Assembly: GCA_963730605.1 (NCBI GenBank)
Contig: CAVSSM010000001.1
Span: 384,001 to 448,000, forward strand
DNA length: 64,000 bases
DNA from: an uncultured Chlamydiae bacterium
GTDB taxonomy: Bacteria > Chlamydiota > Chlamydiia > Chlamydiales > SM23-39
Direction of reading: 5' to 3'
Shown: piece after piece, positions 5,547 through 59,420 of the stretch
How positions within the stretch are numbered: the stretch's first letter is position 1
Layout: each line of letters begins with the position of its first letter
Position numbers and translations under genes: made by a program
The notes under the pieces: model-generated
What the model was told of the DNA's origin: nothing
Database searches by the model: none
What the model saw: only the letters and a program-made list of their open reading frames with translations

Positions 5547-8500
5547 ACAAAGTACTCATTCTAGGCTCGGGAGGGCTCCGCATCGGCCAGGCCGGGGAAT
5601 TCGACTATTCCGGCTCCCAGGCGATCAAGGCTTTGAAGGAAGAGGGTCTGAAAACCGTCTTGGTCAATCCGAATATCGCGACCGTCCAGACCGATTTCGA
5701 GATGGCCGACCAGATCTACTTCCAACCTTTGAATGCGGCATCGATCGAAAGGATCATCGCGAAAGAAAAACCGGACGGCATCCTCCTCAGTTTCGGGGGA
5801 CAAACGGCATTGAACCTCGGCCTCGAATTGGACGAGCTCGGCATTTTAAAGCGGTATCAGACCCAAGTCCTCGGGACTCCCATCGAAGCGATACGGCTGA
5901 CGGAAGACCGGGACCTTTTCAAACAAAATCTTTTGGCAATAGGCATCCAGACGCCAAGAAGTTTCGCAGTGAGTAGGGTGCCGGAAGCTCTCGCCGCAGC
6001 GAAAAAGATCGGCTATCCCGTCATGATGCGCTCTGGATTTTCTCTCGGCGGCCTCGGCTCCGGCAAAATCGAAAGCGAAAAACAACTCGAAAGCGCGGCC
6101 GCCTGCGCCCTCCAGGGCGCCCCGCAAATCCTGATCGAGCAATACCTTTTCGGCTGGAAAGAGCTCGAATATGAAGTCGTCCGCGACCGTGACGACCAAG
6201 CCCTTACGATCTGCAACATGGAAAACCTCGATCCGATGGGCATTCATACGGGAGAAAGCATCGTCGTCGCTCCGACGCAAACTTTAAATAACCAGGAATA
6301 CCATTTGCTCCGCGAGATTGCGATCAAGGCCGCGCGCCATTTCAAGATCCAAGGGGAATGCAATGTCCAATTCGCCCTCGATCCGAAATCAGGGGAATAT
6401 CTCGTCATCGAAATGAATGCGCGCCTCTCCCGCTCGAGCGCCCTCGCATCGAAAGCGACCGGTTATCCCCTCGCTTTCGTTGCCGCCAAGCTCGCCCTTG
6501 GCTATCGGCTCGACCAGATCCCCAATGCGATCACGAAAAAGACAACCGCATTTTTCGAGCCTGCCCTCGATTATGTCGTCGTCAAAATCCCAAGGTGGGA
6601 TACGCAGAAGCTAAAGATTGCAGACCGCTCTATCGGAACTGAGATGAAAAGCGTCGGCGAGGTCATGGCGATCGGCCGCACCTTTCCCGAAGCTCTACAA
6701 AAAGGGATCCGGATGCTCAATATCGGCTCGTCAGGCATCGACGACCCTCCGGAAAAAATCGATGACCTACACGAGGAGATCCGCCATCCTACCGACCGGA
6801 GGATTTTTGCCCTCTACCAATTTTTCAAACAGGGAGGCGCGGTCGCCGATGCTAAAGAGATGTCCCAAATCGACCCCTGGTTCTTGCATCATATCCGCGA
6901 CCTTGCCTTATTCGAGCTGACTTTAAGGAGAGGAAAATTAGATCCTCCTCTTCTGAAACAAGCAAAACAGCTCGGGTTTTCCGACCGCTCCATCGGCAGG
7001 CTCAAGAAAAAATCGGAAAATGAGATCCGAGCCTGCCGTTTGAAAAACCAGATCGTCCCATTCGTCAAACAGATCGATACTTTGGCTGGAGAGTTCGACA
7101 CCGAGACGAATTACCTCTACATGACATACCAAGCATCCGTTCACGACGTCGCATGCTCGAAGAAAAAACCCCTTTTCATCCTCGGCTCAGGCCCTTACTG
7201 CATCGGCTCGTCGGTCGAATTTGATTGGTGCGCAGTCAATATGGCCAGGCACCTCAGGCGTATGCGAAAGGAGGTTGTCCTCATTAACTCCAATCCGGAG
7301 ACCGTGTCGACCGATTTCGACGAATCGGACAGGCTCTATTTCGAAGAACTGACCTTGGAAAGGGTGAAGGATATCGCCGATTTCGAAAGCCCGAAAGGGA
7401 TTATCGTCTCGGTGGGCGGGCAGATTGCCAATAACCTGGCCCATCCGCTGCATCTGGCAAAGTATCCGATCCTAGGCACGCCGGCTGCAATGATCGATCG
7501 GGCCGAAAACCGGGACTCCTTCTCATCGCTCCTCCGGAAATTAGGTATCGATCAACCTCAGTGGCAGCGGGCGACCACCCTCAAGAAAGCGGAGGAGTTT
7601 GCCGCTCAAGTCGGCTACCCCGTGTTGATCCGTCCGTCCTACGTCCTTTCAGGCGCCGCGATGAACGTGATCTGGAATAAAAATGAACTCGAACAGTTCC
7701 TCAAAGAAGCGACGATCATCTCTCCCGACCATCCGATCGTCCTTTCCAAGTTCATCGAAGACGCGAAGGAGCTTGAGATCGACGGGGTTGCGCAGAAAGG
7801 AAAGATCGCCATCTCCGCCATCAGCGAACATGTCGAAAATGCCGGCATCCATTCCGGCGACGCGACCATCGTCCTCCCCCCTCAACGCCTCTATCTCGAA
7901 ACGATCCGCCGCGCGAAATCGATCGCCGCCGACATCGTCCGGTCGCTCCAGATTTCCGGCCCTTTCAATATCCAGTTCATCGCTAAAGACCAAAGGCTCC
8001 AAGTGATCGAATGCAACGTAAGAGCCTCCCGTTCATTCCCGTTCGTGTCGAAAGTCACACGGAGCAATTTCATCAAAATCGCGGCTGAGGCGATCCAGGG
8101 CAGACACAAACCCAAACCGTTCGAGACCCTCGAGCTCGATTACGTCGGGGTCAAGACGCCCCAATTCTCCTATAAGCGGCTCAAAGGGGCCGATCCGGTC
8201 GCCAATGTCGAGATGGCGTCCACCGGGGAAGTCGCCCATATCGGCGATTCCTACTACGAAGCCTTTTTTGCCTCGTGGCTATCGACGGAGCAAAAACTCA
8301 AGGGCAAACGGCTTCTCGTGAGCGCGAGCCTCGAATTCAGGCCAAAACTCCTCGACCCCCTGATGGTTTTGGAAAACAAAGGCTGGGACCTCTTTGCTAC
8401 GCAAGGGACCCACGCATTTCTTACGAGCCGGGGCGTCGGTTCAGTCTCCGTCTACAAAGTGGGGGAAAGGTACGAGCCCAATGTAGCCACCTTGCTGAAA

Positions 8501-18956: not shown

Positions 18957-19144
18957 AGAACATCGTAAGAACATCCTCGACAAAATAGCTCTATTCGCTT
19001 TAAAATCCGTCCTGTTCACCAGGGGTGCCTTCCATGGCTGAAAGAACGCAGGATGCGTTTAACCCTTACGACCCGATCTAGGTAATACTAGCGTGGGAAG
19101 TGTGGAAATATCTTCCTTTTTGGTGAACACAAAAAGGAGAATCT

Positions 19145-32100: not shown

Positions 32101-33228
32101 CTTTATACCGGACAAAAAATAAATTCATAGCGTGCAACCACCTGTAAAACACGAAAGTAGTCGCCTGAATTTTCTCAGAATCCACCTCCCAAAAATCGCC
32201 CTACGGATCAGATTTAGCCCCTCCCTAAAGAGGCTCCTCGCCTTTCTCCCGTGAGTTTTGACCTCTATCGCCTGTATCTGATCCTTGATATCCCCCATTC
32301 GATATGCCCAGCAGAAAGCGATCGCGAGGACGAACACCATCTTCTCAATCTTGATCGATGATGTGTGTGTCCTCCATTCGGAACCCACGGGTCTTCAAAC
32401 AACCGAACATGGTTTCGATTTCCCAACTCCTCCTATGCATCCCCAGAGGATTCTCGAATTTATAGCTGGAGACTACGATCATTTGCTCCTTGGCGCCTTT
32501 TCTCTTTTCGATCGAAACGTAGAGAGAAAGACCCCAGAGGTTAATGGGGTGATTCACAACTTTTTTCCGTGAGAGCCATTTCCGTAGGCGTCCTATTGGA
32601 AGTTTGCCGTTCTCTCCGATTTCGACCATGGAGTTCTGTTTAACCCTGATGATGAATGGGATCTTCTGTTCGATTAGAAAGCGGAACCACTGCGTTCCTA
32701 TGAACTCGCGATCCGCAAGAAGTACCTCGATTCTGCTGATCCCGAGATGTTCCACGACCCGCTTTAGGAGATCGATCCTATCCTCCGCACATGAGTTGCC
32801 TTCAAGATTCGGCACAACCCAGAGTAGTGGAATGCCAATGCCTCTGTAAGCGATCGAGAGCATCAAAATATTGGGGATTAGAGTGCACTTATCGCCGAGT
32901 GGAAACAGGCGGAAAACCAGAAGAACGATCCTACTCATGTCGAAGGTAAAACCGGTGAAGAATCGGCAGACTCTACGATACGATGACTCCTCCTTGGCCT
33001 CTGACTTGAAGGCTGAAGCAATTTGGGTCAGGTTTATGGTTCTGACAACGAACAGAGCCTGAATGATTTGCCCTAGACAGGCGAGACGGCACTTGTGCCA
33101 ATCGAAAAAAATGGATAAAGTTGCTTGCAACTCGCTGATGTGTTTCATTATACCTCGATGCTTGAAAGACAACGAGATATGATCGGCCTTCAGCGAGCCA
33201 TTGTCAGCAACTTATTTTTTGTCCAGTA
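32101..33228 (-). mobile_element. IS4-family element with a frameshifted, internally deleted transposase (32125..33148)
   Basis: Ends CTTTATACCGGACAAAAAAT / ATTTTTTGTCCAGTA(CAGAG); LLADREFIG, RRSWEIETMFGCLKTRGF. Confidence 0.85.
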
Positions 33229-34460
33229 CTACAGCGTTTCATTAATTTTGACATAATTTCTTGATAAAAAATATACTTGACGCCTTGTAAAATTCGTGGG
33301 AGTGCAGGTATGCGAAAGAAGTATAAAGTCAAGTTAACACCTAGTCAGCGCAAGCAATTACTCGAAGTTGTGCATAAAGGAAAGCAGAAGGCAAAAACAA
33401 TCACTCATGCTCGAATACTATTGCAGGCAGATTCTGGTGAAGAGGGGCCGGGTTTGAGAGCAAAAGCTATTGCGGCAGGGTTGAATATTCACGAACGCAC
33501 TGTACATCGAGTCAGAGAATCTTTCGCAAACGATGGACTGGAAGCTGCTTTGCACCGAAAAAAACATCGCCAATACAAACCAAGAAAACTCGATGGTGAT
33601 CAAGAAGCCCATCTGGTTGCCATATGTTGCGGGGCCCCTCCGGAAGGGCGCAAAGAATGGACCTTGAGATTGTTAAGCGAAAGACTGGTTCAGCTAGAAG
33701 TTATTGATTCTATTTCCAGAAGCACAGTCCATCGCACTTTAAAAAAAATGAACTTAAGCCCTGGCTAAAGAAAGAATGGTGTATTCCTCCTGAGGAAAAC
33801 GCTGACTTTGTTTGCCGAATGGAAAATGTGTTAGGCCTCTATAAGTGCCCATACAATCCAGAATATCCAATGATTTGCATGGATGAGTCGAGTAAGCAAC
33901 ACGAGGCAGGAAAGCTGGATAACATTCCAGCAAAACGAGGTAAGGTTGAACGCTTTGATACAGGATATGAGCGCAATGGCGTGAGTAATATTCTGCTGAG
34001 TTTTGAGCCACTAACAGGGAAACGATACATTGATGTTTCGGAGAGAAGGACTCGATTGGATTGGGCCAAACATATACAGAAACTTGTAGAGGAGCATTAT
34101 CCCAAGGCAAAAAACATCCTCTTGGTCTGCGATAATTTAAATATCCATACAGGTGCTGCTCTTTATGAGCTTCTGCCGCCCAAAGAGGCGAAAAGGATCG
34201 TAGACCGTCTGGAATTTCGTTATACGCCGAAACATGGGAGCTGGTTAAACATGGCAGAAATCGAATTAAGCCACCTTTCCAGGCAATGTTTAAACCGACG
34301 CCTAAGAGACATAGTCGAGGTTAAAAAAGAAGTTGCCTCCTGGCTAGAGGGCAGAAACAAGGATGCGCATGTTATAGACTGGCGCTTCACAGTTGAGGAC
34401 GCAAGAATCAAGCTAAAAAAGCTTTACCCCACAATTGGCAAAATTAATGAAACGCTGTAG
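33229..34460 (+). mobile_element. IS630-family element (orfA 33310..33768, orfB to 34460, -1 frameshift at an A8 run)
   Basis: 22-bp terminal inverted repeat CTACAGCGTTTCATTAATTTTG, TA duplication; DDE motifs MDE, CDNLNIH, SWLNMAEIE. Confidence 0.95.
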
Positions 34461-34467
34461 TACAGAG

Positions 34468-42830: not shown

Positions 42831-43951
42831 TATACCGCTCGTGATTCAAAATTTTGATGCGTGAAAATTTCCCTTGACTGCACAATGGCTGCGTGAATTT
42901 TTTAACCGACTCAGAACGACAGGAACTCAAACTCCGGCACCGGGGGGACCGCGATGGGCGGGTGCGTGATCGAATAAAGGCTGTTCTCCTCTATGATGAG
43001 GGGTGGGCTCCCAAAGACATTGCCAGGGTTCTGTTGATTTCTGACGAAGCAGTTCGTCACCATGTTGACGCATACAAAACGTCGAAAAAATTGCGCCCCG
43101 AAAGCGGCGGCTCCGAGGAGAAACTATCCCAAACGCAGTCCGAGCAACTTGAGGCTCATCTTCAAGAACACACGTACCTTTACGTCAAGGATATCGTCGC
43201 ATATGTAGAAGTGACTTTCGGTATTGTCTATACCGTCCACGGATTGAGGGATTGGCTGCGAAGACACGGATTTTCCTACAAAAAACCCGCCGTTGTACCC
43301 GGGAAAGCCAACAAAGAGCAGCAACAAAAGTGGCTCGCCGGATACGAGAAACTCAAGGCAGAACTCCTCGAGGATGAGACTATCTGCTTTATTGACGGCG
43401 TTCATCCAACGCACAATGTGCAGCCTGCTTATGGGTGGATCAAAAAAGGCGTGCGTAAAGAGATCCCAGCAAACACAGGACGTGCCAGGCTCAATCTTTC
43501 AGGGAGCATCGATGTCATCACCCACAGTGTGGTAATCCAAGAAGACGAGACTTTAAACGCAGAATCGATAATCCGGTTTTTCCAAAAGATCGAAGAATTT
43601 TACCCGAGTAAACGAAAGATCCATGTATTTTGCGATAATGCACCGTACTATCGGAATAGGGCTGTGAGGCAGTACCTAGAAACGGCAAAAGTTTGTTTGC
43701 ACTTTTTACCGCCCTATAGCCCCAATCTAAACCCGATAGAACGACTGTGGAAATGGATGAAGGAGCGGGTAGTTTACAATACTTATTACGAGTACTTTGA
43801 AGACTTTAGAGGAGCGATTCTTGGTTTTTTCGCTGTATTGGCGACTATGACCGCGGAGTCAACTTTAGGCCGGGATTTAAGAAGCCGGGTTAGGGATAAA
43901 TTTAGTCCCTTTCAGGCACCTGCTGCCAAGTTTTGAATTTCCTTGGGTATA
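42831..43951 (+). mobile_element. IS630-family element with single-ORF transposase 42893..43936
   Basis: Imperfect inverted ends TATACC..ATTCAAAA; FIDGVHP, FCDNAPYY, LPPYSPNLNPIERLW. Confidence 0.95.
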
Positions 43952-44317
43952 ACCATCCACGACAAGCGTGGAGGCTTTTTGACACCCAACTCCGAAGAGC
44001 GGTGATTTATGGTCAGCCGTGGCTGCCACTTTACGGACGATTTACTTCGATCCGAAGATCTAGCACCCGTTGCTCAACCGATAGATCGAGCAAGAGTCAG
44101 ATTTAAGCGTCTGTTTCTTGCGCCAGCCCGAAGGCTTAACAAATAGGGTCGGGATTATTCCCGAGGCGGAGACAACTTAATGCCGTTGCACACCCTAAAA
44201 TGTGCTAAGTTTAAGAGTGGGAACATTTAAATACAAGGAGCGCCTTCCTCCAACAGCACAAGGCTGTTGGTTTCCGGCGTTAAATTTTGATGAAAAAGGC
44301 TTTCAAAGGAAGCTCAT

Positions 44318-44578
44318 TTTTGCCGATGACCGGACTCCCCCTGAGCTGACGTGCGAGACGATCGTCCCGTCATTTCGGGCTCCGGTTCGCAGCGGCCACC
44401 CCAATGACGATGCGTCGTTGAGGACCCCGGCCAAAGCTGCTCATTTCGAGTCCTCTCAGAGCCAATACTCTCGAGGCCCCCTTTCCGCAAGGAAAGGAGC
44501 GAGCCAAAGTATTGGCTCGCGTGGGGCTGAAAGATGGAGAGCTCCGCTCGTAATATGGCTCCGAGTCACCGGCAAAAA
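44318..44578. repeat. tRNA-Leu 3'-end-derived structured cassette 1
   Basis: Starts TTTTGCCGATGACCGGACTC, ends with inverted GTCACCGGCAAAAA. Confidence 0.7.
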
Positions 44579-44614
44579 CGAAAAAGGGGAAGCAAAGTGT
44601 CCCCCGTTTTTGGA

Positions 44615-44660
44615 GGCAATCGGACGTAATCAGGACTTTTTATTGGAGTAAGCTCAAAGA
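44615..44660 (+). other. Serine-recombinase att half-site (P' arm) 1
   Basis: GGCAATCGGACGTAATCAGGACTTTT; homologous to 54517 and 56979; inverted relative to CGTCCGATTG at 56781. Confidence 0.7.
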
Positions 44661-44725
44661 ATCACTTGCCGTTCTGTGGCAAAATCAATGATTTTGCTAT
44701 ACTTTTGAAAAAAGAGAGGCTTTTT

Positions 44726-44965
44726 ATGAGTCCGACAGTTTTCAAGGAAGGGCCTTTTCGATTCTTCTTTTTCTCCAGGGAAGAGCCTCGAATGCATGTG
44801 CATATTTCTTGTCCTGATGGAGAAGCCAAATTTTGGATAGAGCCTATTATTTCTTTAGCTACATATCGTGGTCTAAATAAGAAACAACTGAATCAAATGC
44901 AATTATTAGTGGAGAAACATATTGATGAAATCCTCAGCTCTTGGAAAAACCATTTTTCCAGTTGA
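44726..44965 (+). CDS. DUF4160 family protein (HicA-like putative toxin)
   Basis: MSPTVFKEGPFRFFFFSREEPRMHVHI...EAKFWIEP. Confidence 0.88.
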   Translation: MSPTVFKEGPFRFFFFSREEPRMHVHISCPDGEAKFWIEPIISLATYRGLNKKQLNQMQLLVEKHIDEILSSWKNHFSS

Positions 44966-45234: not shown

Positions 45235-47049
45235 TCAACCTCGCCTTGCAGTTGAGCCAAAAAATATGCTAGGAAAGTAACTTCGGAATAAAGAGATGGC
45301 CTCTTTAATAAACAGTCCACAGAAATAGAGAATTGTTCCCGCTCCTATTACTATAAGTACTCGCACAAAAAAAGAGCTTTTTGTGAATATTGTCTGGTCA
45401 ATAGAACATTTATACATTCAGCTAGTACCTGACCACAAAAGTTTTCATGGGTAGAGCCTCTTCATTTTCACTCGCGCATCTGGGATAGCAAATCCCCAAA
45501 GGATCTTTGCCCGTCTAGCATTTCTATCTGATACATAAGCGGCCACCTCTCTACCGAGAACTTCTTTTGAGCCTATTCGCCTTTTGAGGCACTGACCGCC
45601 AAGAACAGAAATTTCAATCTCTGCCATGTTCAACCAACTTGCATGTTTTGGCGTATGGCGCACCTCTAATTTCTTAATGATCCTCCTGGCTTCTTCGGGC
45701 TCAAACGTCTCGTAGAGATTAGCCAGTCGATGCGTATTCAAATTGTCCATGACAACCCTAATTTTTTCTGCCTCGGGAAAATGTTTGTCCACCAGATCCT
45801 TCATGCACTCGGCAAAATCTTTTTTTGTTCTCTGGTCTGTGACTTTTATTTCCCGCCAGCCTCCCAAGGGCTGTACAAAAACAAAGAGGTTGCTTGTTCC
45901 ATTCCTTTCGTACTCATAATCTCGGCGTTTGACTCTCCCTGGCACTGCGGCAATTGGCGCCAACACATCATCTACCAATTGGACTGGTGTTTCATCAAAA
46001 CACACAACGGGTTTCTTTTCGTTCAGCGGCTCCTCATATAAATCTAAAACATCTTCCATCCGACAAATATACTCGTAATCCACTTCTGGAACACACCAAC
46101 TCTTTACTTGCCATGGCTTTATTTCGTTTTTTTTAATGTTCTGCGAACCGTTTCGTCCGATATGGAATCTGTCAACTCTAGCGTAATGCAACGATCCGCA
46201 AGTAGCTGCATTGTCCAGCAGGCGCGTCCTTCGGGCGCCTCGCTGCAAGCAAGCGCGATTAAATGGGCTTTAGCCTTTCCAACCATCTTCTCCGGTCTTC
46301 CGGATCGCGCTTTTTCATTGAGTGATTGTTGTAGCCCGTGTTCACAGTAGGCTTTTCTTGTATTGTAAACGCTCACCTCGCTGCACCGTAGCAAAGAGGC
46401 AATCTCTTTATCTGGTTTCTTCTCATCAGCGAATAACAGAGTTTGCGCTCTTCTGATAATCCGCGCGGATGACTTCCCTTTTCTAACAATGTCCTCGAGT
46501 TCGCTGCGCACCTCAACTGTGAGATGAACGGACCATTTTTTGTTCATAGCTGCCTCCAAATGAAAGGCATATATGGAACACTATTCAAACATTTTTTTAA
46601 AAACTTTTGTGGTCAGGTACTAGCCCCTCATCATGCTTTATCATTCCATGGATCTTGCCAAAAAGTTCACCTGGATAAACATAGGATATCGCAATTTGTT
46701 CCCCTGGCGTTATTATCGGGAAAACGAGAGCCGATCCATCTTTTAGTTGTTTGGTTGCATACTCTATCGCTGGAAAAACTTGAAAAGTCTCGGGTAAGTG
46801 AAGATGTATGATTTGTACATTTTTTGCCTCCTTTTTTCCATCATTTCTCAATATGAGATTGCGAGTGGAAATAACTTCTCCATTCGTCATTTTAACGTGA
46901 CCTGGCAAAGTTGTATAGGCTATTATACGAGGATTCCTTTGCCATCTAATAGCAAGATATGCAGAAAGAATAACAGAGAGTATTACGATCATACTCTCAA
47001 TTAAAAGACGGGCATCTAACATATTTATTATAAAACTGGATGCTCTCAA
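45235..47049 (-). pseudogene. Membrane protein gene split by IS630 (N-part 46623..47049, C-part 45235..45422)
   Basis: Removing the IS joins KHDEGL to AECINVLLTRQYS; terminal TM lies in another frame after a T-run. Confidence 0.6.
45425..46620 (-). mobile_element. IS630-family element (orfA 46119..46559, orfB to 45445; A-run frameshift)
   Basis: 21-bp terminal inverted repeat GTACCTGACCACAAAAGTTTT, TA in CTAG target; CFDE, MDNLNTH, SWLNMAEIE. Confidence 0.95.
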
Positions 47050-47111: not shown

Positions 47112-47572
47112 TCAAGCAGCTAGCTGCTTGAAGGCAATTGCGCAACAAAGCCGATGCTCGATCGACAGTACCAAAATATTGATGTGAGTTTTACCCCATT
47201 TCCAGTTCGTCCGGTCTAACAGCAAAACGCACTGTTCACCCCATGTGAAGAATTTACAGGCGAGAATGACGATAAAGCTCATATCGAAGGAAAAACCGCC
47301 GAAAAATCGTTGAATTCTTCGATAGACGGACTCTTCCTTTGCCTGGGAGCAAAAGGCCTGGGCTATTTGGGTGAGATTTACGCTCCTGACAAGGAACAGG
47401 GCCTGTAGAATTTGGATCAGGAACGAAATTCGGGCTTTGTTCCAATCCAAGAAATGAATTAAAGTAGTCTCTAACTCGCTGATCTGTCTCATTATACCTC
47501 GCTGCTTAGTAACCAACGAGATATGGTGCCACTTCAGCGGGTTTCTTTCTTCAAATCATTTTTTGTCGTGTA
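47112..47572 (-). mobile_element. IS4-family 5' remnant (diverged relative of 32101..33228)
   Basis: MRQISELETTLIHFLDWNKAR..SVYRRIQRFF..LDRTNWKWGK. Confidence 0.85.
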
Positions 47573-48803
47573 CTACAGCGTTTCATTAATTTTGACATAA
47601 TTTCTTGATAAAAAATATACTTGACGCCTTGTAAAATTCGTGGGAGTGCAGGTATGCGAAAGAAGTATAAAGTCAAGTTAACACCCAGTCAGCGCAAGCA
47701 ATTACTCGAAGTTGTGCATAAAGGAAAGCAGAAGGCAAAAACAATCACTCATGCTCGAATACTATTGCAGGCAGATTCTGGTGAAGAGGGGCCGGGTTTG
47801 AGAGCAAAAGCTATTGCGGCAGGGTTGAATATTCACGAACGCTCTGTACATCGAGCAGAGAATCTTTCGCAAACGATGGACTGGAAGCTGCTTTGCACCG
47901 AAAAAAACATCGCCAATACAAACCAAGAAAACTCGATGGTGATCAAGAAGCCCATCTGGTTGCCATATGTTGCGGAGCCCCTCCGGAAGGGCGCAAAGAA
48001 TGGACCTTGAGATTGTTAAGCGAAAGACTGGTTCAGCTAGAAGTTATTGATTCTATTTCCAGAAGCACAGTCCATCGCACTTTAAAAAAAATGAACTTAA
48101 GCCCTGGCTAAAGAAAGAATGGTGTATTCCTCCTGAGGAAAACGCTGACTTTGTTTGCCGAATGGAAAATGTGTTAGGCCTCTATAAGTGCCCATACAAT
48201 CCAGAATATCCAATGATTTGCATGGATGAGTCGAGTAAGCAACACGAGGCAGGAAAGCTGGATAACATTCCAGCAAAACGAGGTAAGGTTGAACGCTTTG
48301 ATACAGGATATGAGCGCAATGGCGTGAGTAATATTCTGCTGAGTTTTGAGCCACTAACAGGGAAACGATACATTGATGTTTCGGAGAGAAGGACTCGATT
48401 GGATTGGGCCAAACATATACAGAAACTTGTAGAGGAGCATTATCCCAAGGCAAAAAAGATCCTCTTGGTCTGCGATAATTTAAATATCCATACAGGTGCT
48501 GCTCTTTATGAGCTTCTGCCGCCCAAAGAGGCGAAAAGGATCGTAGACCGTCTGGAATTTCGTTATACGCCGAAACACGGGAGCTGGTTAAACATGGCAG
48601 AAATCGAATTAAGCCACCTTTCCAGGCAATGTTTAAACCGACGCCTAAGAGACATAGTCGAGGTTAAAAAAGAAGTTGCCTCCTGGCTAGAGGGCAGAAA
48701 CAAGGATGCGCATGTTATAGACTGGCGCTTCACAGTTGAGGACGCAAGAATCAAGCTAAAAAAGCTTTATCCCACAATTGGCAAAATTAATGAAACGCTG
48801 TAG
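47573..48803 (+). mobile_element. IS630-family element, near-identical to 33229..34460 with a 1-nt deletion in orfA
   Basis: Same 22-bp terminal inverted repeat and TA duplication; 1231 vs 1232 bp. Confidence 0.95.
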
Positions 48804-48906
48804 TACAGAGGCGCGTTTTATGGATAATAGAATTTATTATAAATTAATGTACTTTAAATCATCAATTTGATACAATATTTATTATAAAATCATTATATGA
48901 TAAAAA

Positions 48907-54469: not shown

Positions 54470-54508
54470 CAGGTGGTTGCACGCTATGAATTTATTTTTT
54501 GTCCAGTA
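54470..54508. mobile_element. Isolated IS4 right-end remnant
   Basis: Reverse complement of 32106..32144 (GGACAAAAAATAAATTCATAGCGTGCAACCACCTG). Confidence 0.8.
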
Positions 54509-54516
54509 CGACAAAG

Positions 54517-56798
54517 GGCAATCGGACGCTTTTAGAACTTTTGATTGGAAAAAATTTAAATGAAAAATTTATAACCATGCCGAAATTGTATTAACTATTT
54601 TAATCGTTTAAATAAAACACAATTAATGATATCGTGCAGATTAAATAAAAAAAGGAGCAGATATATGCAAGCAATTGAAATGAATATTGTACACAACGAT
54701 CTTATCTCTGATACGAGCTCTGATCAGCGCATTGCAGAACCATTGATTGCTACAGAAGCTGGCACATACTCTAAAGCCTCCGCAAGAAGAATAAGAATCG
54801 AATCTCAATCAGCACAATCGAGAATCGAAGATCAAATTGCTTGTGGTGGAGATCTCCCTCTCAATAAGGAAAATGCAAAGCGACGATTGCAGTACTTAGA
54901 TCAAATAATCGCAAAATCTTTTGGCGAATATTCCAATGCTTTAGTATTCATATACACATACGAAAAATTAGCCCTTCATATTTACTTGGGAAATACAGCT
55001 GAAGCAGTAGCTTGTTTATCAAAGCTGCAGGAACTAGAGAACGTCCAACCTTGTTCTGACGATGAGGACGACGTATTTATAGAAGGAAAAACTGCGCATG
55101 CTTTATTAGGTTGGGCAGCAGGCGATGGTACAGCTGAAGTAATGGACCTCGCAACATTCCCTGATCCGGTAACCCTTTTATTGTTAAAAGCAAAAGGCAT
55201 TCCGCTCCCTGAACCATACTTTTCTGTTGATGACTCTTTTACTGGCAACAAAGAAATCGATGAAAAACTTTTTTCTCGCAATTACCAAGAAGCACTCACA
55301 CTCTTAGACAAACAGCTAAAGGGCAACAAACTATTTGTGCTAGATCGAGAGATCTTCTTGCAAGCACGGGGTTTGTGTAAAGCAATATTGGACGATTATG
55401 AAGGAGCGCTTCAAGATTATAATGAAATTATAGATTCTCATCCATCTTTTAATATCCAAGAACTCCCATTAATTCGTGGCTTGATTCATTTCTTAAATAA
55501 CGATCCGGAAAAAGCTCGAATCGATATCTGGCCTCCTCTCAAAGAAGAAATGACACTACACGATTATTTTTGGAAAAAATTTAACCAGATCAATGATAAT
55601 TTGTCAGGATTCGCGATCGTAAAAATTCTCGATCTCTAGCAGTTGTGCTTCATTCCAGATCGAATAGCTCCGACCTCCTGCGCTGGGATACGGGGGTCAT
55701 GTTTGCCCGGAGTTACGTCTTACAGCTGAGCGACAACATCAAGCGAAGCAAGGAACAGGCGGCTAAGTCGGGAGCTTGGATCGGGCAGGCCCCGATTGGT
55801 TACAAACATTCGGTTGATGAGAAGGGCGGCAAAACGATCGTCCTCGATCCCGAAAGAGCCCCTCTCATCCGCAAACTCTTTGATCTCTATGCAACAGGTA
55901 AAACTATTCCCTTCTCGCCCTTAAAGAAGAAGCGGAAAAAATGGGGTTGAGAACGAAAAGAGGACAGAAGGTAGCGAAGTCCCAGATCGATGACATTCTC
56001 AAAAATTCCTTTTACTGCGGCACGATGGAAAGCAAATATGGGACCATCCAACATCGCTATGAGGCTCTCATCTCCCCTTCTCTTTTTCATCAAGTTCAGA
56101 ATGTAACCGCGGGATTCCATAAGAAGCCTTTTAAAGCGCTTAACGAACCCTTTGTCCTTCGAGGTATGGTCACTTGCGCCCATTGCGGCTGTTTGATCAC
56201 TCCCGAGATTAAGAAAAAAAGATACCTGTATTACAGCTGTACCAATGCGAAAGGGAACTGCAACCGGATCTATGTTAGGGAAGAGCCACTGGTCGATTCT
56301 TTGTCATCGTATTTTGACCAAATAGCTTTAAGCCAATCTCAGATCGATGAGGTAACGGGGTATTTGAAAGAGATCCATGACACCGAGAATCGATTCCACA
56401 AAGAGTGTATGGATAACCTCCGAAGAGAACAGGAAAAAATTCAAAAACGTCTCAGCCAGATGTACGATGACAAGCTGGACGGGCTGATCGACGAAGCCAT
56501 GTATCTCGACAAGATCCGGACTTACAAGGCTCGCCAGGCCGAAATCTTGGAAGAGATGGGGCGCCACCACGATGCTGATGAGAACTTCTACGTGACGGCC
56601 AACATGGTGATGAACCTGGCTGCTCGCTCCCGAGAAATCTTCCTGAGTTCTGAAGTGACCGAAAAACGCCAAATTTTAAATTTGGTATTTCAGAACTTGC
56701 AATTGAATGATCAGAAAAACCTGATTCTCGAGGTAAAAGAGCCGTTTTTAACCATGATAGGGATCAAAAACGGCACCATTCGTCCGATTGATTGCCGG
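54517..56798 (+). mobile_element. Degenerate serine-recombinase island (P' arm to P arm)
   Basis: Left end GG|CAATCGGACG, right end CGTCCGATTGATTGCC|GG followed by tRNA-like TGACCGGACTC. Confidence 0.7.
54665..55639 (+). CDS. TPR-containing hypothetical protein
   Basis: [23 protein letters not shown] and [21 protein letters not shown]-like repeats; AAGGAG RBS. Confidence 0.7.
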
Positions 56799-56801
56799 TG
56801 A
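55645..56801 (+). pseudogene. Large serine recombinase, N-terminally truncated and frameshifted
   Basis: [31 protein letters not shown], zinc ribbon CAHCG..YYSC..C, coiled coil; catalytic Ser domain absent. Confidence 0.88.
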
Positions 56802-56937
56802 CCGGACTCACCCTCGGCGGGCGAGCGAAGCGCTCGCCCCGTCATCTCGGGCTCCGATTCGGTCGCCATCGAGACGCCGGTCGCCCTCATTTCTCGTCCT
56901 AAAAACGATCCCCCGGACCGTTTTTTCACCGGCAAAA
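56792..56937. repeat. tRNA-Leu 3'-end-derived structured cassette 2
   Basis: TTGCCGGTGACCGGACTC (18/18 match to the tRNA) ... inverted TCACCGGCAAAA; shares CCCGTCAT(T/C)TCGGGCTCCG with cassette 1. Confidence 0.75.
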
Positions 56938-56978
56938 TTGGGCCGATGGACTAACAGGACAATAACTTCAATTTTGCA

Positions 56979-57025
56979 GGCAATCGGACGTAATCAGAAC
57001 TTTCGACTAGAAAAAGCTCAAAGAA
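56979..57025 (+). other. Serine-recombinase att half-site (P' arm) 3
   Basis: TTTTGCA-GG-CAATCGGACGTAATCAGAACTTTCGAC. Confidence 0.7.
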
Positions 57026-57241
57026 AAGCTTACAATTTTTTTATACAACACACGAACCTATCCTCCAATTCTTAATGATTCATTTATGGTCGATTTTGAG
57101 GCGATTTTTCGTCGTCGACCGCCCGAAGTAAATATCGGGACGGTGATCTTTACGAGGGCGGAGGCGCGAAAAGCGCCCAAAAGCGTGCCGTAAAGGGATC
57201 GTGAAGAATTGGAGGATAGGTTCACCTGTAATATCAAGTAT

Positions 57242-58135
57242 ATGCCTATGGATCAAGCCGATGAGTCGATCTTAGTTCCCTCTTCTCCCTCTTTTGAATC
57301 TCTCAAAAAGCATAACCAGCATGGCATGGAATATTGGAGCGCGCGAGATCTTCAGCCTTGCCTCGGGTATTCTCAGTGGCGTCGTTTTGAAAATGCGATC
57401 AAAAAAGCTATGGAATCTTGTAAACAGTCAGGAAACAACCCCGATGATCACTTTGCCGGCGCCGGCAAACCGATCCCTGGCGGCAAAGGATCGTCTCAAG
57501 TAGTTGATGATTACCATCTTTCGCGCTTTGCCTGCTATCTCATCGCTCAAAATGGAGATCCCAGAAAACCAGAAATCGCCCAAGCCCAAAAATACTTCGC
57601 GATTCAGACCCGCCGCCAGGAAATCTCCGATCAAATGGCTGCCGATATGGAACGGGTTGAGATGAGAAATCAAGCATCAGCGGAGTTTAAAGCTTTGTCT
57701 GGGGCCGCTCGAGAGGCTGGCGTTCAAAACGCTATGTTTGGCATCTTCCATGACGCTGGCTACAAGGGGCTTTATGGTGGATTGGGAGTTGATGCAATCA
57801 AATCTCGCAAAGGGATTGCCCAAAAAGAACAACTCATGGATCGAATGGATACGACCGAATTGGCTGCCAATCAGTTTCGAATGACACAAACGCGAGAAAA
57901 GTTAAAACGGGAAAATATCAAAAATCAAAGAGATGCGATAGAAACTCATGAAATGATAGGTAAAGGGGTGCGTACCCTAATCGAAGAATTTGGCGGCACT
58001 CCTCCTGAACATATTCCTCCAGCTGAGTCCATCAAAAAAATTGAGAAACGATTGAAAGCTACCCAACCTCGATTAACCCTCGATCCTAAAGATACACTAG
58101 GCGTCCAGGATCATTCAGAGATCAGCGAAGAATAA
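57242..58135 (+). CDS. dinD: DNA damage-inducible protein D (BRO-N family)
   Basis: EYWSARDLQPCLGYSQWRRF, LSRFACYLIAQNGDPRK..AQKYFAIQTRRQE, GYKGLYGG, ELAANQFR. Confidence 0.9.
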   Translation: MPMDQADESILVPSSPSFESLKKHNQHGMEYWSARDLQPCLGYSQWRRFENAIKKAMESCKQSGNNPDDHFAGAGKPIPGGKGSSQVVDDYHLSRFACYLIAQNGDPRKPEIAQAQKYFAIQTRRQEISDQMAADMERVEMRNQASAEFKALSGAAREAGVQNAMFGIFHDAGYKGLYGGLGVDAIKSRKGIAQKEQLMDRMDTTELAANQFRMTQTREKLKRENIKNQRDAIETHEMIGKGVRTLIEEFGGTPPEHIPPAESIKKIEKRLKATQPRLTLDPKDTLGVQDHSEISEE

Positions 58136-58174
58136 TTTTGGCTCGGGGAAAACCAATGAATGTGAGACACATTA

Positions 58175-58678
58175 TTAGTGGTCTTCACTCGAATTTATAA
58201 GATCCTTTTTCTTGATGTAAAAGTTAGTTTTTGAGCCACCGCTGTCGTTTAATGTATAAATTCCAAAGTTTTTACAGGCATTCAAACCAATAATTGTATT
58301 TGGAATGATCCTGATTTCGTAGAAATTTCCACAAGAATTCTTCTTATTTATTTCTGCAAATTCTGAATCAGTGGCTACTACTTTGATTGCAGCATTTGAG
58401 TCTAGAGATGTCAATATGTCAGGATTGACGGATTTTAGGAAGGCATCGAGGTCGTTTTTGAGGGTCCTATTTAGTTCCTCGTTTCGGCCCTTGCCAAGGT
58501 TGCATAGAACGCAAAGGGTTTGAAGATTTGATAAGTCGTTTATGCCTCCTTTTGCAACAGGAATGATGTGGTCAACGTGCAATTCGACGCCAGATTTGCC
58601 GCAAATTTTACACGTATAAAGATCTCTCTTCCATACCTCCAGCCGCTTTTTTGGTCCTATGTATTCTCTTTTGCCCAT
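58175..58678 (-). CDS. HNH endonuclease
   Basis: RDLYTCKICG..LHVDHIIPVAKGG..NLQTLCVLCN. Confidence 0.92.
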   Translation of the reverse strand: MGKREYIGPKKRLEVWKRDLYTCKICGKSGVELHVDHIIPVAKGGINDLSNLQTLCVLCNLGKGRNEELNRTLKNDLDAFLKSVNPDILTSLDSNAAIKVVATDSEFAEINKKNSCGNFYEIRIIPNTIIGLNACKNFGIYTLNDSGGSKTNFYIKKKDLINSSEDH

Positions 58679-58729
58679 TCTTCAATATGATTTATATATG
58701 CTAAGAAAGCAAAAAAAGCGCCTTCTTTT

Positions 58730-59072
58730 TTTTGCTGGTGACCGGGCTCCTTTCGCGCGGGCACACGAAACGTGTGTCCCGTCTGGCGAAAGCCGCTTCC
58801 CATACCAACGATGATGCATCGTTCCCGGGCGACGGCGGTGATCCTCAATTTACTTCGACTTGGATCAGGGGAAGGGGCTTCGCCTCGCTCCCTTCCCCTA
58901 GCCCCTTTCCCCGCACGCGTGTACTTCGTCACGCGTGGGACGCCCTCGTGCACGGGCTTCGCCTGTTGCTGCCGGGCCGGCGATCCTCCCCGGTTTTGCC
59001 AAGGGCAAAACATCGGAGAGGATTCGAGTCCAGTACGGAAGCCGCACTGGCGGCTTCCTCACTCGGCAAAAA
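58730..59072. repeat. tRNA-Leu 3'-end-derived structured cassette 3
   Basis: TTTTGCTGGTGACCGGGCTC ... GGATTCGAGTCCAG[hairpin]TCACTCGGCAAAAA, with several GC-rich hairpins. Confidence 0.7.
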
Positions 59073-59074
59073 TG

Positions 59075-59098
59075 AAAAAGCCCCGCTAAAGCGGGGCT
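59075..59098 (-). terminator. Rho-independent terminator of tRNA-Leu
   Basis: Stem AGCCCCGC-TAAA-GCGGGGCT followed by a T-run on the minus strand. Confidence 0.85.
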
Positions 59099-59103
59099 AT
59101 TTT

Positions 59104-59186
59104 TGCCGGTGACCGGACTCGAACCAGCACTCAATTGCTTGAAGTAGATTTTGAGTCTACCGCGGCTACCATTACGCCACACCGGC
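59104..59186 (-). tRNA. tRNA-Leu (CAA), CCA not encoded
   Basis: GCCGGTGTGGCGTAATGGTAGCCGCGGTAGACTCAAAATCTACTTCAAGCAATTGAGTGCTGGTTCGAGTCCGGTCACCGGCA cloverleaf with long variable arm. Confidence 0.96.
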
Positions 59187-59241
59187 TTGAAAATAAAGCG
59201 CTCATGATAGTCCAGATAGCCCTTTTATAGAAAGAAGTCTC

Positions 59242-59420
59242 AGAGACTGTACACAAACTCAGGTGGCAACAAGTGGCTGAGCGAGACAAAGTCAGATCGA
59301 AGGAGCGAAGCTCCAGTTCGAGCGAGGAAGACATTCTTGAATACGAAGGATTCCGAGCGAGAATCGATATGGCAAAGTCGCAGCCAGCCAATTGTCACCC
59401 GAGTTTGTGTACAGTCTCTC
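59242..59420. mobile_element. Palindromic MITE family E (about 179 bp)
   Basis: Inverted repeat AGAGACTGTACACAAACTC(A/G)GGTG; flanked by the 7-bp direct repeat AAGTCTC. Confidence 0.8.

Follow-up and report, generated by a model that had tools for sequence, protein, structure and literature searches.

The stretch of DNA analyzed here (the window) comprises 64,000 nucleotides (nt) from the genome of an uncultured Chlamydiae bacterium, positions 384,001 to 448,000 of contig CAVSSM010000001.1; the assembly of this genome (G000) is 83% complete. The window contains the remains of a large serine recombinase (LSR) gene, a tRNA-Leu(CAA) gene that is its sole tRNA according to ARAGORN and Rfam, and a set of partial attachment (att) sites whose arms encode short, related peptides. 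The features that relate the recombinase to the tRNA are as follows.

44290..44337, plus strand: attB-like remnant (B-core-B'), with a degenerate terminator-like flank and the outermost copy of the tRNA-Leu 3' end, TTGCCGATGACCGGACTC (44320-44337)
44617..44661, plus strand: arm A, a P' att half-site behind TTGGAGG, encoding QSDVIRTFYWSKLKE
54517..54563, plus strand: arm B, GG and a P' arm, encoding QSDAFRTFDWKKFK-stop
55642..56801, plus strand: LSR pseudogene, residues ~108-193 and the part from 194 onward lie in different frames, separated by a frameshift near 55897-55902
56781..56798, plus strand: P arm and core in the coding end of the recombinase, CGTCCGATTG (an inverted copy of the arm core) followed by ATTGCCGG
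56792..56809, plus strand: exact 18-nt copy of the tRNA-Leu(CAA) 3' end, which gives the TGA stop; an attR-type junction
56978..57025, plus strand: arm C, AGG and a P' arm, encoding QSDVIRTFD-stop-KKLKE
59104..59186, minus strand: tRNA-Leu(CAA), the integration target

The recombinase open reading frame (ORF) at 55941-56801 ends in ...KNGTIRPIDCR, and its TGA (56799-56801) lies within TTGCCGGTGACCGGACTC (56792-56809), which matches 59103-59120, the reverse-complemented 3' end of tRNA-Leu(CAA) 2.3 kb away, at all 18 positions. An initial annotation, made from the letters of the window, had described the stop after IRPIDCR as supplied by tRNA-like sequence; since the copy is exact, that sequence is a genuine repeat of the tRNA end. 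When up to two mismatches are allowed, the window contains the 18-mer at four positions (44320, 56792, 58732, and 59103), as against no occurrence in 100 shuffles. The exact arm motif CAATCGGACG is also found four times (shuffle mean 0.12; none of 100 shuffles reaches four), on the plus strand in the arms at 44617, 54519, and 56981 and on the minus strand at 56781-56790, within the recombinase end. In translation the three P' arms encode QSD(A/V)(F/I)RTFDW-type peptides, all three as originally described, and the arms are mutually 63-85% identical. Two additional arms lie outside the window (C1:460601 and C10:9609, the latter doubled by an assembly palindrome), making five distinct genomic copies. 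The left flank of the 44290-44337 remnant resembles, in direct reading, the hairpin left of the tRNA (59071-59103).

Judged by its domains, the gene is a large serine recombinase, now a pseudogene. The ORF at 55941-56801 matches PF07508 (Recombinase, E 1.7e-7) and then PF13408 (Zn_ribbon_recom, E 2.3e-8), and its cysteine cluster reads CAHCGC...YYSCTNAKGNC. The window LSR is 66% identical to an intact homolog of 514 aa from a genome of the same genus (G002), and alignment to this protein places codons 1-107, including the catalytic serine, among the missing part; the pseudogene starts abruptly, directly after a tetratricopeptide repeat (TPR)-like ORF, and no N-terminal piece was found anywhere in the 83% complete assembly. 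Because intact homologs carry the PF00239 catalytic domain (they begin MKALLLARVSSKEQ), the window gene is a broken member of their family and not a representative of a different one. A family profile (A3) matched structures of A118 integrase (4KIS, E 1.1e-11) and of the TP901-1 catalytic domain (3BVP, E 7e-10) in the PDB; a single-sequence phmmer search of the same database gave no matches. In the AlphaFold2 model of one homolog (P0035), the zinc-ribbon strands are separated by two long helices (338-385 and 391-416), a predicted coiled-coil insertion, and the window LSR aligns across this stretch. The arrangement of catalytic domain, recombinase domain, and zinc ribbon with coiled coil is that of the phage LSRs A118/LI, TP901-1, phiC31, and SPbeta; in these phages attP is not known to fall within the integrase gene, and most insertion targets encode proteins.

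Matches to the LSR were found in 19 of 61 related genomes, G000 included. At eight of the 16 loci examined, a gene for tRNA-Asn, tRNA-Leu(CAA), tRNA-Tyr, or transfer-messenger RNA (tmRNA) overlaps or abuts the LSR 3' end on the opposite strand, and the recombinases acquire read-through tails such as LRMLDSNQRPID, WRWRESNSRP, and GWGRLDSNQRRP. By a crude motif count, tRNA-like tails are present in 77 of the 120 best database homologs, some of which are labeled as coming from Chlamydiota or Rhabdochlamydiaceae; homologs of the Leu type terminate at ...IDCR. In integrated members of the family the reading frame thus leaves the element and enters a tRNA or tmRNA gene in reverse-complement orientation, with IRPIDCR-stop as the outcome at the present locus. 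A three-arm array resembling that of the window is found in G051 at tRNA-Asn. In another genus, locus L045 (G020:C4) has at position 1051 a truncated arm (TTTTTTGCAGG-CAATCGGACGTAA...) located 680 nt from tRNA-Leu(CAA).

It had been predicted that joining the recombinase end to the arm at 54519 would extend the frame beyond CR into a peptide tail, and G014, a genome from another genus within the same family, has just this fusion in contiguous DNA. G014 contains two recombinase C-terminal fragments 2 kb apart. One of them runs uninterrupted through IRPIDCRQSDVIRTFDWKKLKEKL..., reading IRPIDCR-QSDVIRTFDWKKLKEKL... / IRPIDCRQSDVIRTFDWKKLKEKLEVF...; the other, IRPIDCRWPDSNQ..., encodes IRPIDCRWPDSNQHPIARSRF-stop and leads into tRNA-Leu(CAA). 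The attP-type and attR-type junctions of one subfamily therefore stand side by side in this genome. Contiguous natural junctions with a tail fusion are also present in G047, G051, and G015. Where the junction is of the attP type, a conserved ...D-x-x-R-T-F-D-W tail follows in the same frame, and the split-tail design is real for the family, having been seen directly in a relative.

The C-termini of homologs, which the initial annotation had proposed to compare for a D-x-x-R-T-F-x-W tail, show the same alternative. Among 134 retrieved homologs, five (P0030, P0035, P0081, P0121, and P0127) carry D/G-x-F-R-T-x-D-W, with NWRWRDAFRTFDW... and GWGRLGRFRTFDW... as examples of fused tails; the others have tRNA-encoded sequence at that place. 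In all four target classes the arginine of RTFDW lies 10 residues past a conserved proline. In intact elements the tail-encoding P' arm sits at the far end. The 514-aa gene of G002 ends in a tRNA-Tyr-derived block; ~16.5 kb upstream the block recurs and is followed, in frame, by DDFRTFDWQKIQ, and the counterpart in the intact element of G032, ~13 kb away, reads DAFRTFDWSGM. In both genomes the far attL end thus reads ...WGRLD(D/A)FRTFDW... in the LSR frame, behind the tRNA-Tyr-derived block with which the LSR terminates. The cargo of the G002 element comprises a RepB-primase/DUF3987 protein and metabolic genes.

Because of the G014 junction, the five fused tails, and the in-frame tails at the far ends of G002 and G032, the excised and integrated forms of these elements would encode different C-termini, and we infer that the window's own recombinase had a C-terminus that changed in this way between its integrated and free states. 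The earlier proposal that the circle and the integrated form make different isoforms therefore stands for the family (G014, G002, G032) and fails for the local gene, which makes no isoforms now because its catalytic N-terminus is lost and its frame is shifted.

The position of the crossover is the point at which the original description needs correction. The attP-type core in G014 is TTGCAGG, and in arms C, D, and C10 CAATCGG is likewise preceded by GCAGG; in the tRNA and where the recombinase runs into a tRNA, the core reads TTGCCGG or TTGCCGA. One core position differs, being A in attP and attL and C in attB and attR, and it goes with the right-hand arm; the exchange is therefore placed in TTGC. 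The crossover would thus lie in this shared tetranucleotide, 2-5 nt left of the GG at 56797-56798 to which it had been assigned, and the center of the inverted repeat CGTCCGATTG-ATTGCCGG-CAATCGGACG coincides with TTGC. The predicted peptide is unaffected, since CGG and AGG both encode arginine.

That the join recreates an inverted-repeat site was borne out: the joined window site has 17-19 dyad matches of 32, against a shuffle 95th percentile of 17, and the P arm within the gene carries the arm motifs in inverted form, CAATCGGACG exactly and GTTTTTGAT as a match to ACTTTTGAT, at a nearly mirrored distance. Gapless dyad symmetry at junctions of other subfamilies (G051, G047, and the predicted attP of G002) amounts to 13-16 of 32 (95th percentile 17-18) and is not significant, and dyad symmetry was rejected as a general property, as it is significant for the joined site of the window only. 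We also considered whether the arm block GCAGGCAATCGGAC is a displaced tRNA end; none of 39 tRNA genes matches it, and the idea was abandoned when G014 showed TTGCAGG to be the attP core.

The remaining features of the locus, including three GC-rich fold-back modules, are as follows.

44324..44613, no strand assigned: fold-back module A, GC-rich, with a repetitive extragenic palindromic (REP)-like palindrome, between the core copy and arm A
54470..54513, no strand assigned: end of a repeated insertion sequence (IS) or miniature inverted-repeat transposable element (MITE), abutting arm B in place of the expected chromosomal flank
54626..55639, plus strand: TPR-like ORF, its TPR matches near or below curated cut-offs, abutting the truncated 5' end of the recombinase
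56796..56977, no strand assigned: fold-back module C, a 182-nt insert with TTGC on both sides that parts the P arm from arm C
57209..58135, plus strand: Bro-N domain gene, the first gene past arm C; contig C10 has the same order of arm and gene
58175..58678, minus strand: HNH endonuclease gene
58732..59103 (about), no strand assigned: fold-back module T, beginning with TTGCTGGTGACCGGGCTC and closing with a palindromic terminator that adjoins the left side of the tRNA

From left to right, the attB-like remnant is followed by module A, arm A, a 10-kb stretch with IS630-family copies and further genes, the IS/MITE end, and arm B, and then by the TPR-like ORF, the LSR pseudogene, module C, arm C, the Bro-N and HNH genes, module T, and the tRNA. 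Each of the three modules starts with a copy of the tRNA-Leu 3' end and finishes with a palindromic terminator like the one adjacent to the tRNA, and each is located exactly at the att core TTGC, module A at an attL-like, module C at an attP-like, and module T at an attB-like junction. The junction that module C interrupts is contiguous in G014; a metagenome contig from run X2 spans 56744-56955 unchanged. Module-like sequence adjoins tRNA-Leu(CAA) in other genera as well, and the LSR family may be linked to the origin or spread of the modules, which in our reading multiply the att core, elements having occupied two of four cores. The modules were also considered as scars of deleted elements, an idea rejected because their ends are B'/B-like and not P'/P-like. 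A search of 56700-59300 and 44100-44750 against Rfam at permissive thresholds returned the tRNA and chance-level matches, with no RNA family for the modules.

Several further observations concern these repeats. A metagenome ORF of 191 aa (P0135) extends from the recombinase end IRPIDCR across module-like sequence to a stop after GNRT, where the arm is read in another frame; the order recombinase-module-arm therefore recurs outside G000. At 44389-44431, module A contains a palindromic REP-like repeat, 36-43 nt long, that has another 39 matches on eight contigs, and three tandem module-like units with a 184-nt period (G000:C2:272872-273432) run into a tRNA-Tyr-like gene (ARAGORN, C2:273412-273487). 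The 39-nt sequence at 54470-54508 recurs inverted at 32106-32144, 22 kb away, with 97% complementarity; on metagenome contigs it turns up in several different surroundings, so that it represents one end of a repetitive IS or MITE. Of the arms outside the window, the fifth (C1:460601, QSEVIRTFDWSK...) lies 12.6 kb past the window's right end and ~150 nt from the 3' end of tRNA-Arg(TCG), an end that likewise begins TTGCA; this arm is possibly what remains of a secondary integration site. The arm on C10 lies in a perfect inverted duplication (G000:C10:9604-10576, locus L021), with ~970 bp between the arm cores, and is followed by a truncated Bro-N-like gene; the duplication is probably an assembly fold-back. 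IS630-family (DDE_3) copies are located at 33226-34464, 47569-48807, 42893-43936, and 45445-46559, two of which share terminal inverted repeats of 28-29 nt; 300 nt at 33513-33812 and 47856-48155 are 100% identical. A thiamine pyrophosphate riboswitch is present at 19011-19117 (Rfam RF00059, 65.8 bits).

This architecture bears on two further proposals. The pairing of the arm at 54519 with the recombinase at 56801 is unproven, given that the left flank of this arm is an IS end and that the arm at 44617 is an equally good candidate. The idea of three independent islands is plausible, since the arms differ in sequence (63-85% identity); a composite or tandem array fits as well.

Taking this evidence together, we regard it as very probable that the window contains a decayed array of integrative elements at tRNA-Leu(CAA), the sole LSR of which, a pseudogene, comes from a family with attP likely inside the last recombinase codons. 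On insertion the recombinase would lose its conserved tail and end instead at a stop codon within the tRNA sequence; on excision the tail would be restored to the enzyme. The tail likely modulates the activity, direction, or stability of the circle-form enzyme, by analogy with phage Mx8. The three arms would mark at least three acquisitions into att cores multiplied by the fold-back modules behind the tRNA.

Several observations weigh against this reading. By the state of its coding sequence the local LSR is dead, and nothing at the locus can be active; no other copy of the family is present in the 83% complete assembly. The tail junction of G014 belongs to an LSR fragment only, and a protein search for a full-length Leu-type LSR with the tail gave 10 matches, none of which covers the tail. 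No circular or attP junction and no joints were found in four soil-metagenome runs (Logan contigs, depth ~2-5, ~3x); the search for such runs had returned 10, none with half of the sampled words, so that this negative carries no weight in either direction. The location of modules A and C between core and arm is unexplained by simple integration. The tails diverge past the tryptophan, and that of G047 stops at once; in P0035, tail residues 490-509 have a predicted local distance difference test score (pLDDT) below 50 (AlphaFold2, 70 aligned sequences), with no hint of docking.

The last two points also favor the alternative that survives best, in which the anatomy is as described and the tail is without peptide function, RTFDW being kept as a P' half-site bound by the recombinase and its translation being incidental. 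The inverted arm motifs in the P arm and the dyad symmetry of the joined window site fit this explanation, and the authors of the study on the Dehalococcoides recombinase DsiB judged the overlapping C-terminal portion of that enzyme unlikely to have a function (PMC3146451). Some of the constraint does act on the DNA, since the sequence that encodes the tail belongs to the P' half-site as well, and a constraint on spacing would by itself keep the tail in frame. The pattern of variation, however, argues for the peptide. Across six Leu-type arms (16 codons) pN/pS, the ratio of nonsynonymous to synonymous variation, is 0.32 in the tail frame versus 2.35 and 0.88 in the other two, values that are indicative only, as the arms are few and interrelated. 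Among 13 arms, the variable sites of RTFDW comprise four of five third positions, three of five first positions (one a synonymous AGA/CGA exchange), and one of five second positions, the last being the stop in decayed arm C. Three-base periodicity is not expected of a binding site, and natural attP-type junctions of other subfamilies lack significant gapless dyad symmetry. The codon-periodic variation suggests, and does not prove, that the tail is under peptide-level selection, and we consider the purely DNA-based alternative unlikely.

It is far less probable that the arms are the ends of an unrelated repeat (a MITE, an IS, or the fold-back modules themselves) and that the in-frame join is a coincidence. 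Arm B does abut an IS/MITE end, arms A and C come after GC-rich modules, and the five distinct genomic copies are dispersed; but the same join is contiguous in G014 and, for other target classes, in G047 and G051, database proteins carry the fused tail, and in intact elements the arm lies exactly at the far boundary, behind the tRNA-derived block. That a tyrosine integrase made the tRNA-Leu island, with the serine recombinase as cargo or a resolvase, is scarcely credible, for although repeats of tRNA 3' ends classically mark islands made by tyrosine integrases (PMC4383910) and tyrosine recombinase genes occur near other tRNA genes of G000, no profile match to the tyrosine recombinase domain PF00589 exists in the window (the sole match on contig C1 is at 6780-7268), the LSR ORF crosses the repeat, and the 3' end of the LSR meets a tRNA or tmRNA gene at half of the related loci examined.

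The Dehalococcoides ssrA islands offer a parallel. As described by McMurdie et al. 2011 (PMC3146451), they encode DsiB, a CcrB-like LSR of ~540 aa, and the 3' end of its gene runs over the tmRNA gene or its direct repeat; the islands stand in tandem, with repeats of the tDNA 3' end between them, insertion occurs in the T-loop/acceptor region, the C-terminal parts are divergent, and the enzyme was suggested to be possibly fully functional on the circle only. The window LSR similarly runs over an att site into a tRNA 3'-end repeat, and the four 18-mer copies and three P' arms make up a tandem array. The systems differ in that DsiB islands have a second, small serine recombinase, DsiA, and a six-gene module, whereas neither a further ORF with a resolvase domain nor such a module was found among 19 ORFs of the window or 12 scanned ORFs of the G002 element. 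The tail of the circle form has a conserved motif in the family described here, which targets several tRNA genes and tmRNA.

In phage Mx8, according to two papers (PMC6070905; PMC4383910), attP lies within the coding sequence of int and integration creates a new 3' end, which alters the properties of the integrase without inactivating it (review, PMC6070905). An attP within the coding sequence, as in the IntP/IntX forms of Mx8, is seen in G014, G002, and G032. The likeness is one of design and not of family: the Mx8 integrase is a tyrosine recombinase whose altered activity was shown by experiment, and the present enzyme is a serine recombinase known from sequence. For phiC31, a preprint reports that the extreme C-terminus of the integrase contributes to the interface with its directionality factor (bioRxiv 10.1101/2025.05.02.651858). 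Full-text literature searches, which did not extend to subscription-only papers, found neither the present LSR family described for chlamydia-like bacteria nor a conserved tail of the circle form.

A more far-reaching proposal is that the D-x-x-R-T-F-D-W tail would act as a directionality or dosage switch, such that only the circle makes the complete integrase, and that the same recombinases would be the agent of the gene-less fold-back modules behind tRNA genes, multiplying attB and driving the accretion of islands; in this combined form we consider it doubtful. The local copy is a fossil, and its value is therefore as a pointer to intact relatives (G002 and G032). With this family, tRNA and tmRNA genes join the targets of serine integrases; the 2014 Islander paper had called such targets the preserve of tyrosine integrases, serine integrases not being known to act on tRNA genes (PMC4383910). 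For inserting DNA in one direction, serine integrases are the chief tools, and how direction is chosen without a separate factor is an active question; integration that rewrites the C-terminus of the enzyme responsible for it would provide a natural, testable case of self-limiting integration.

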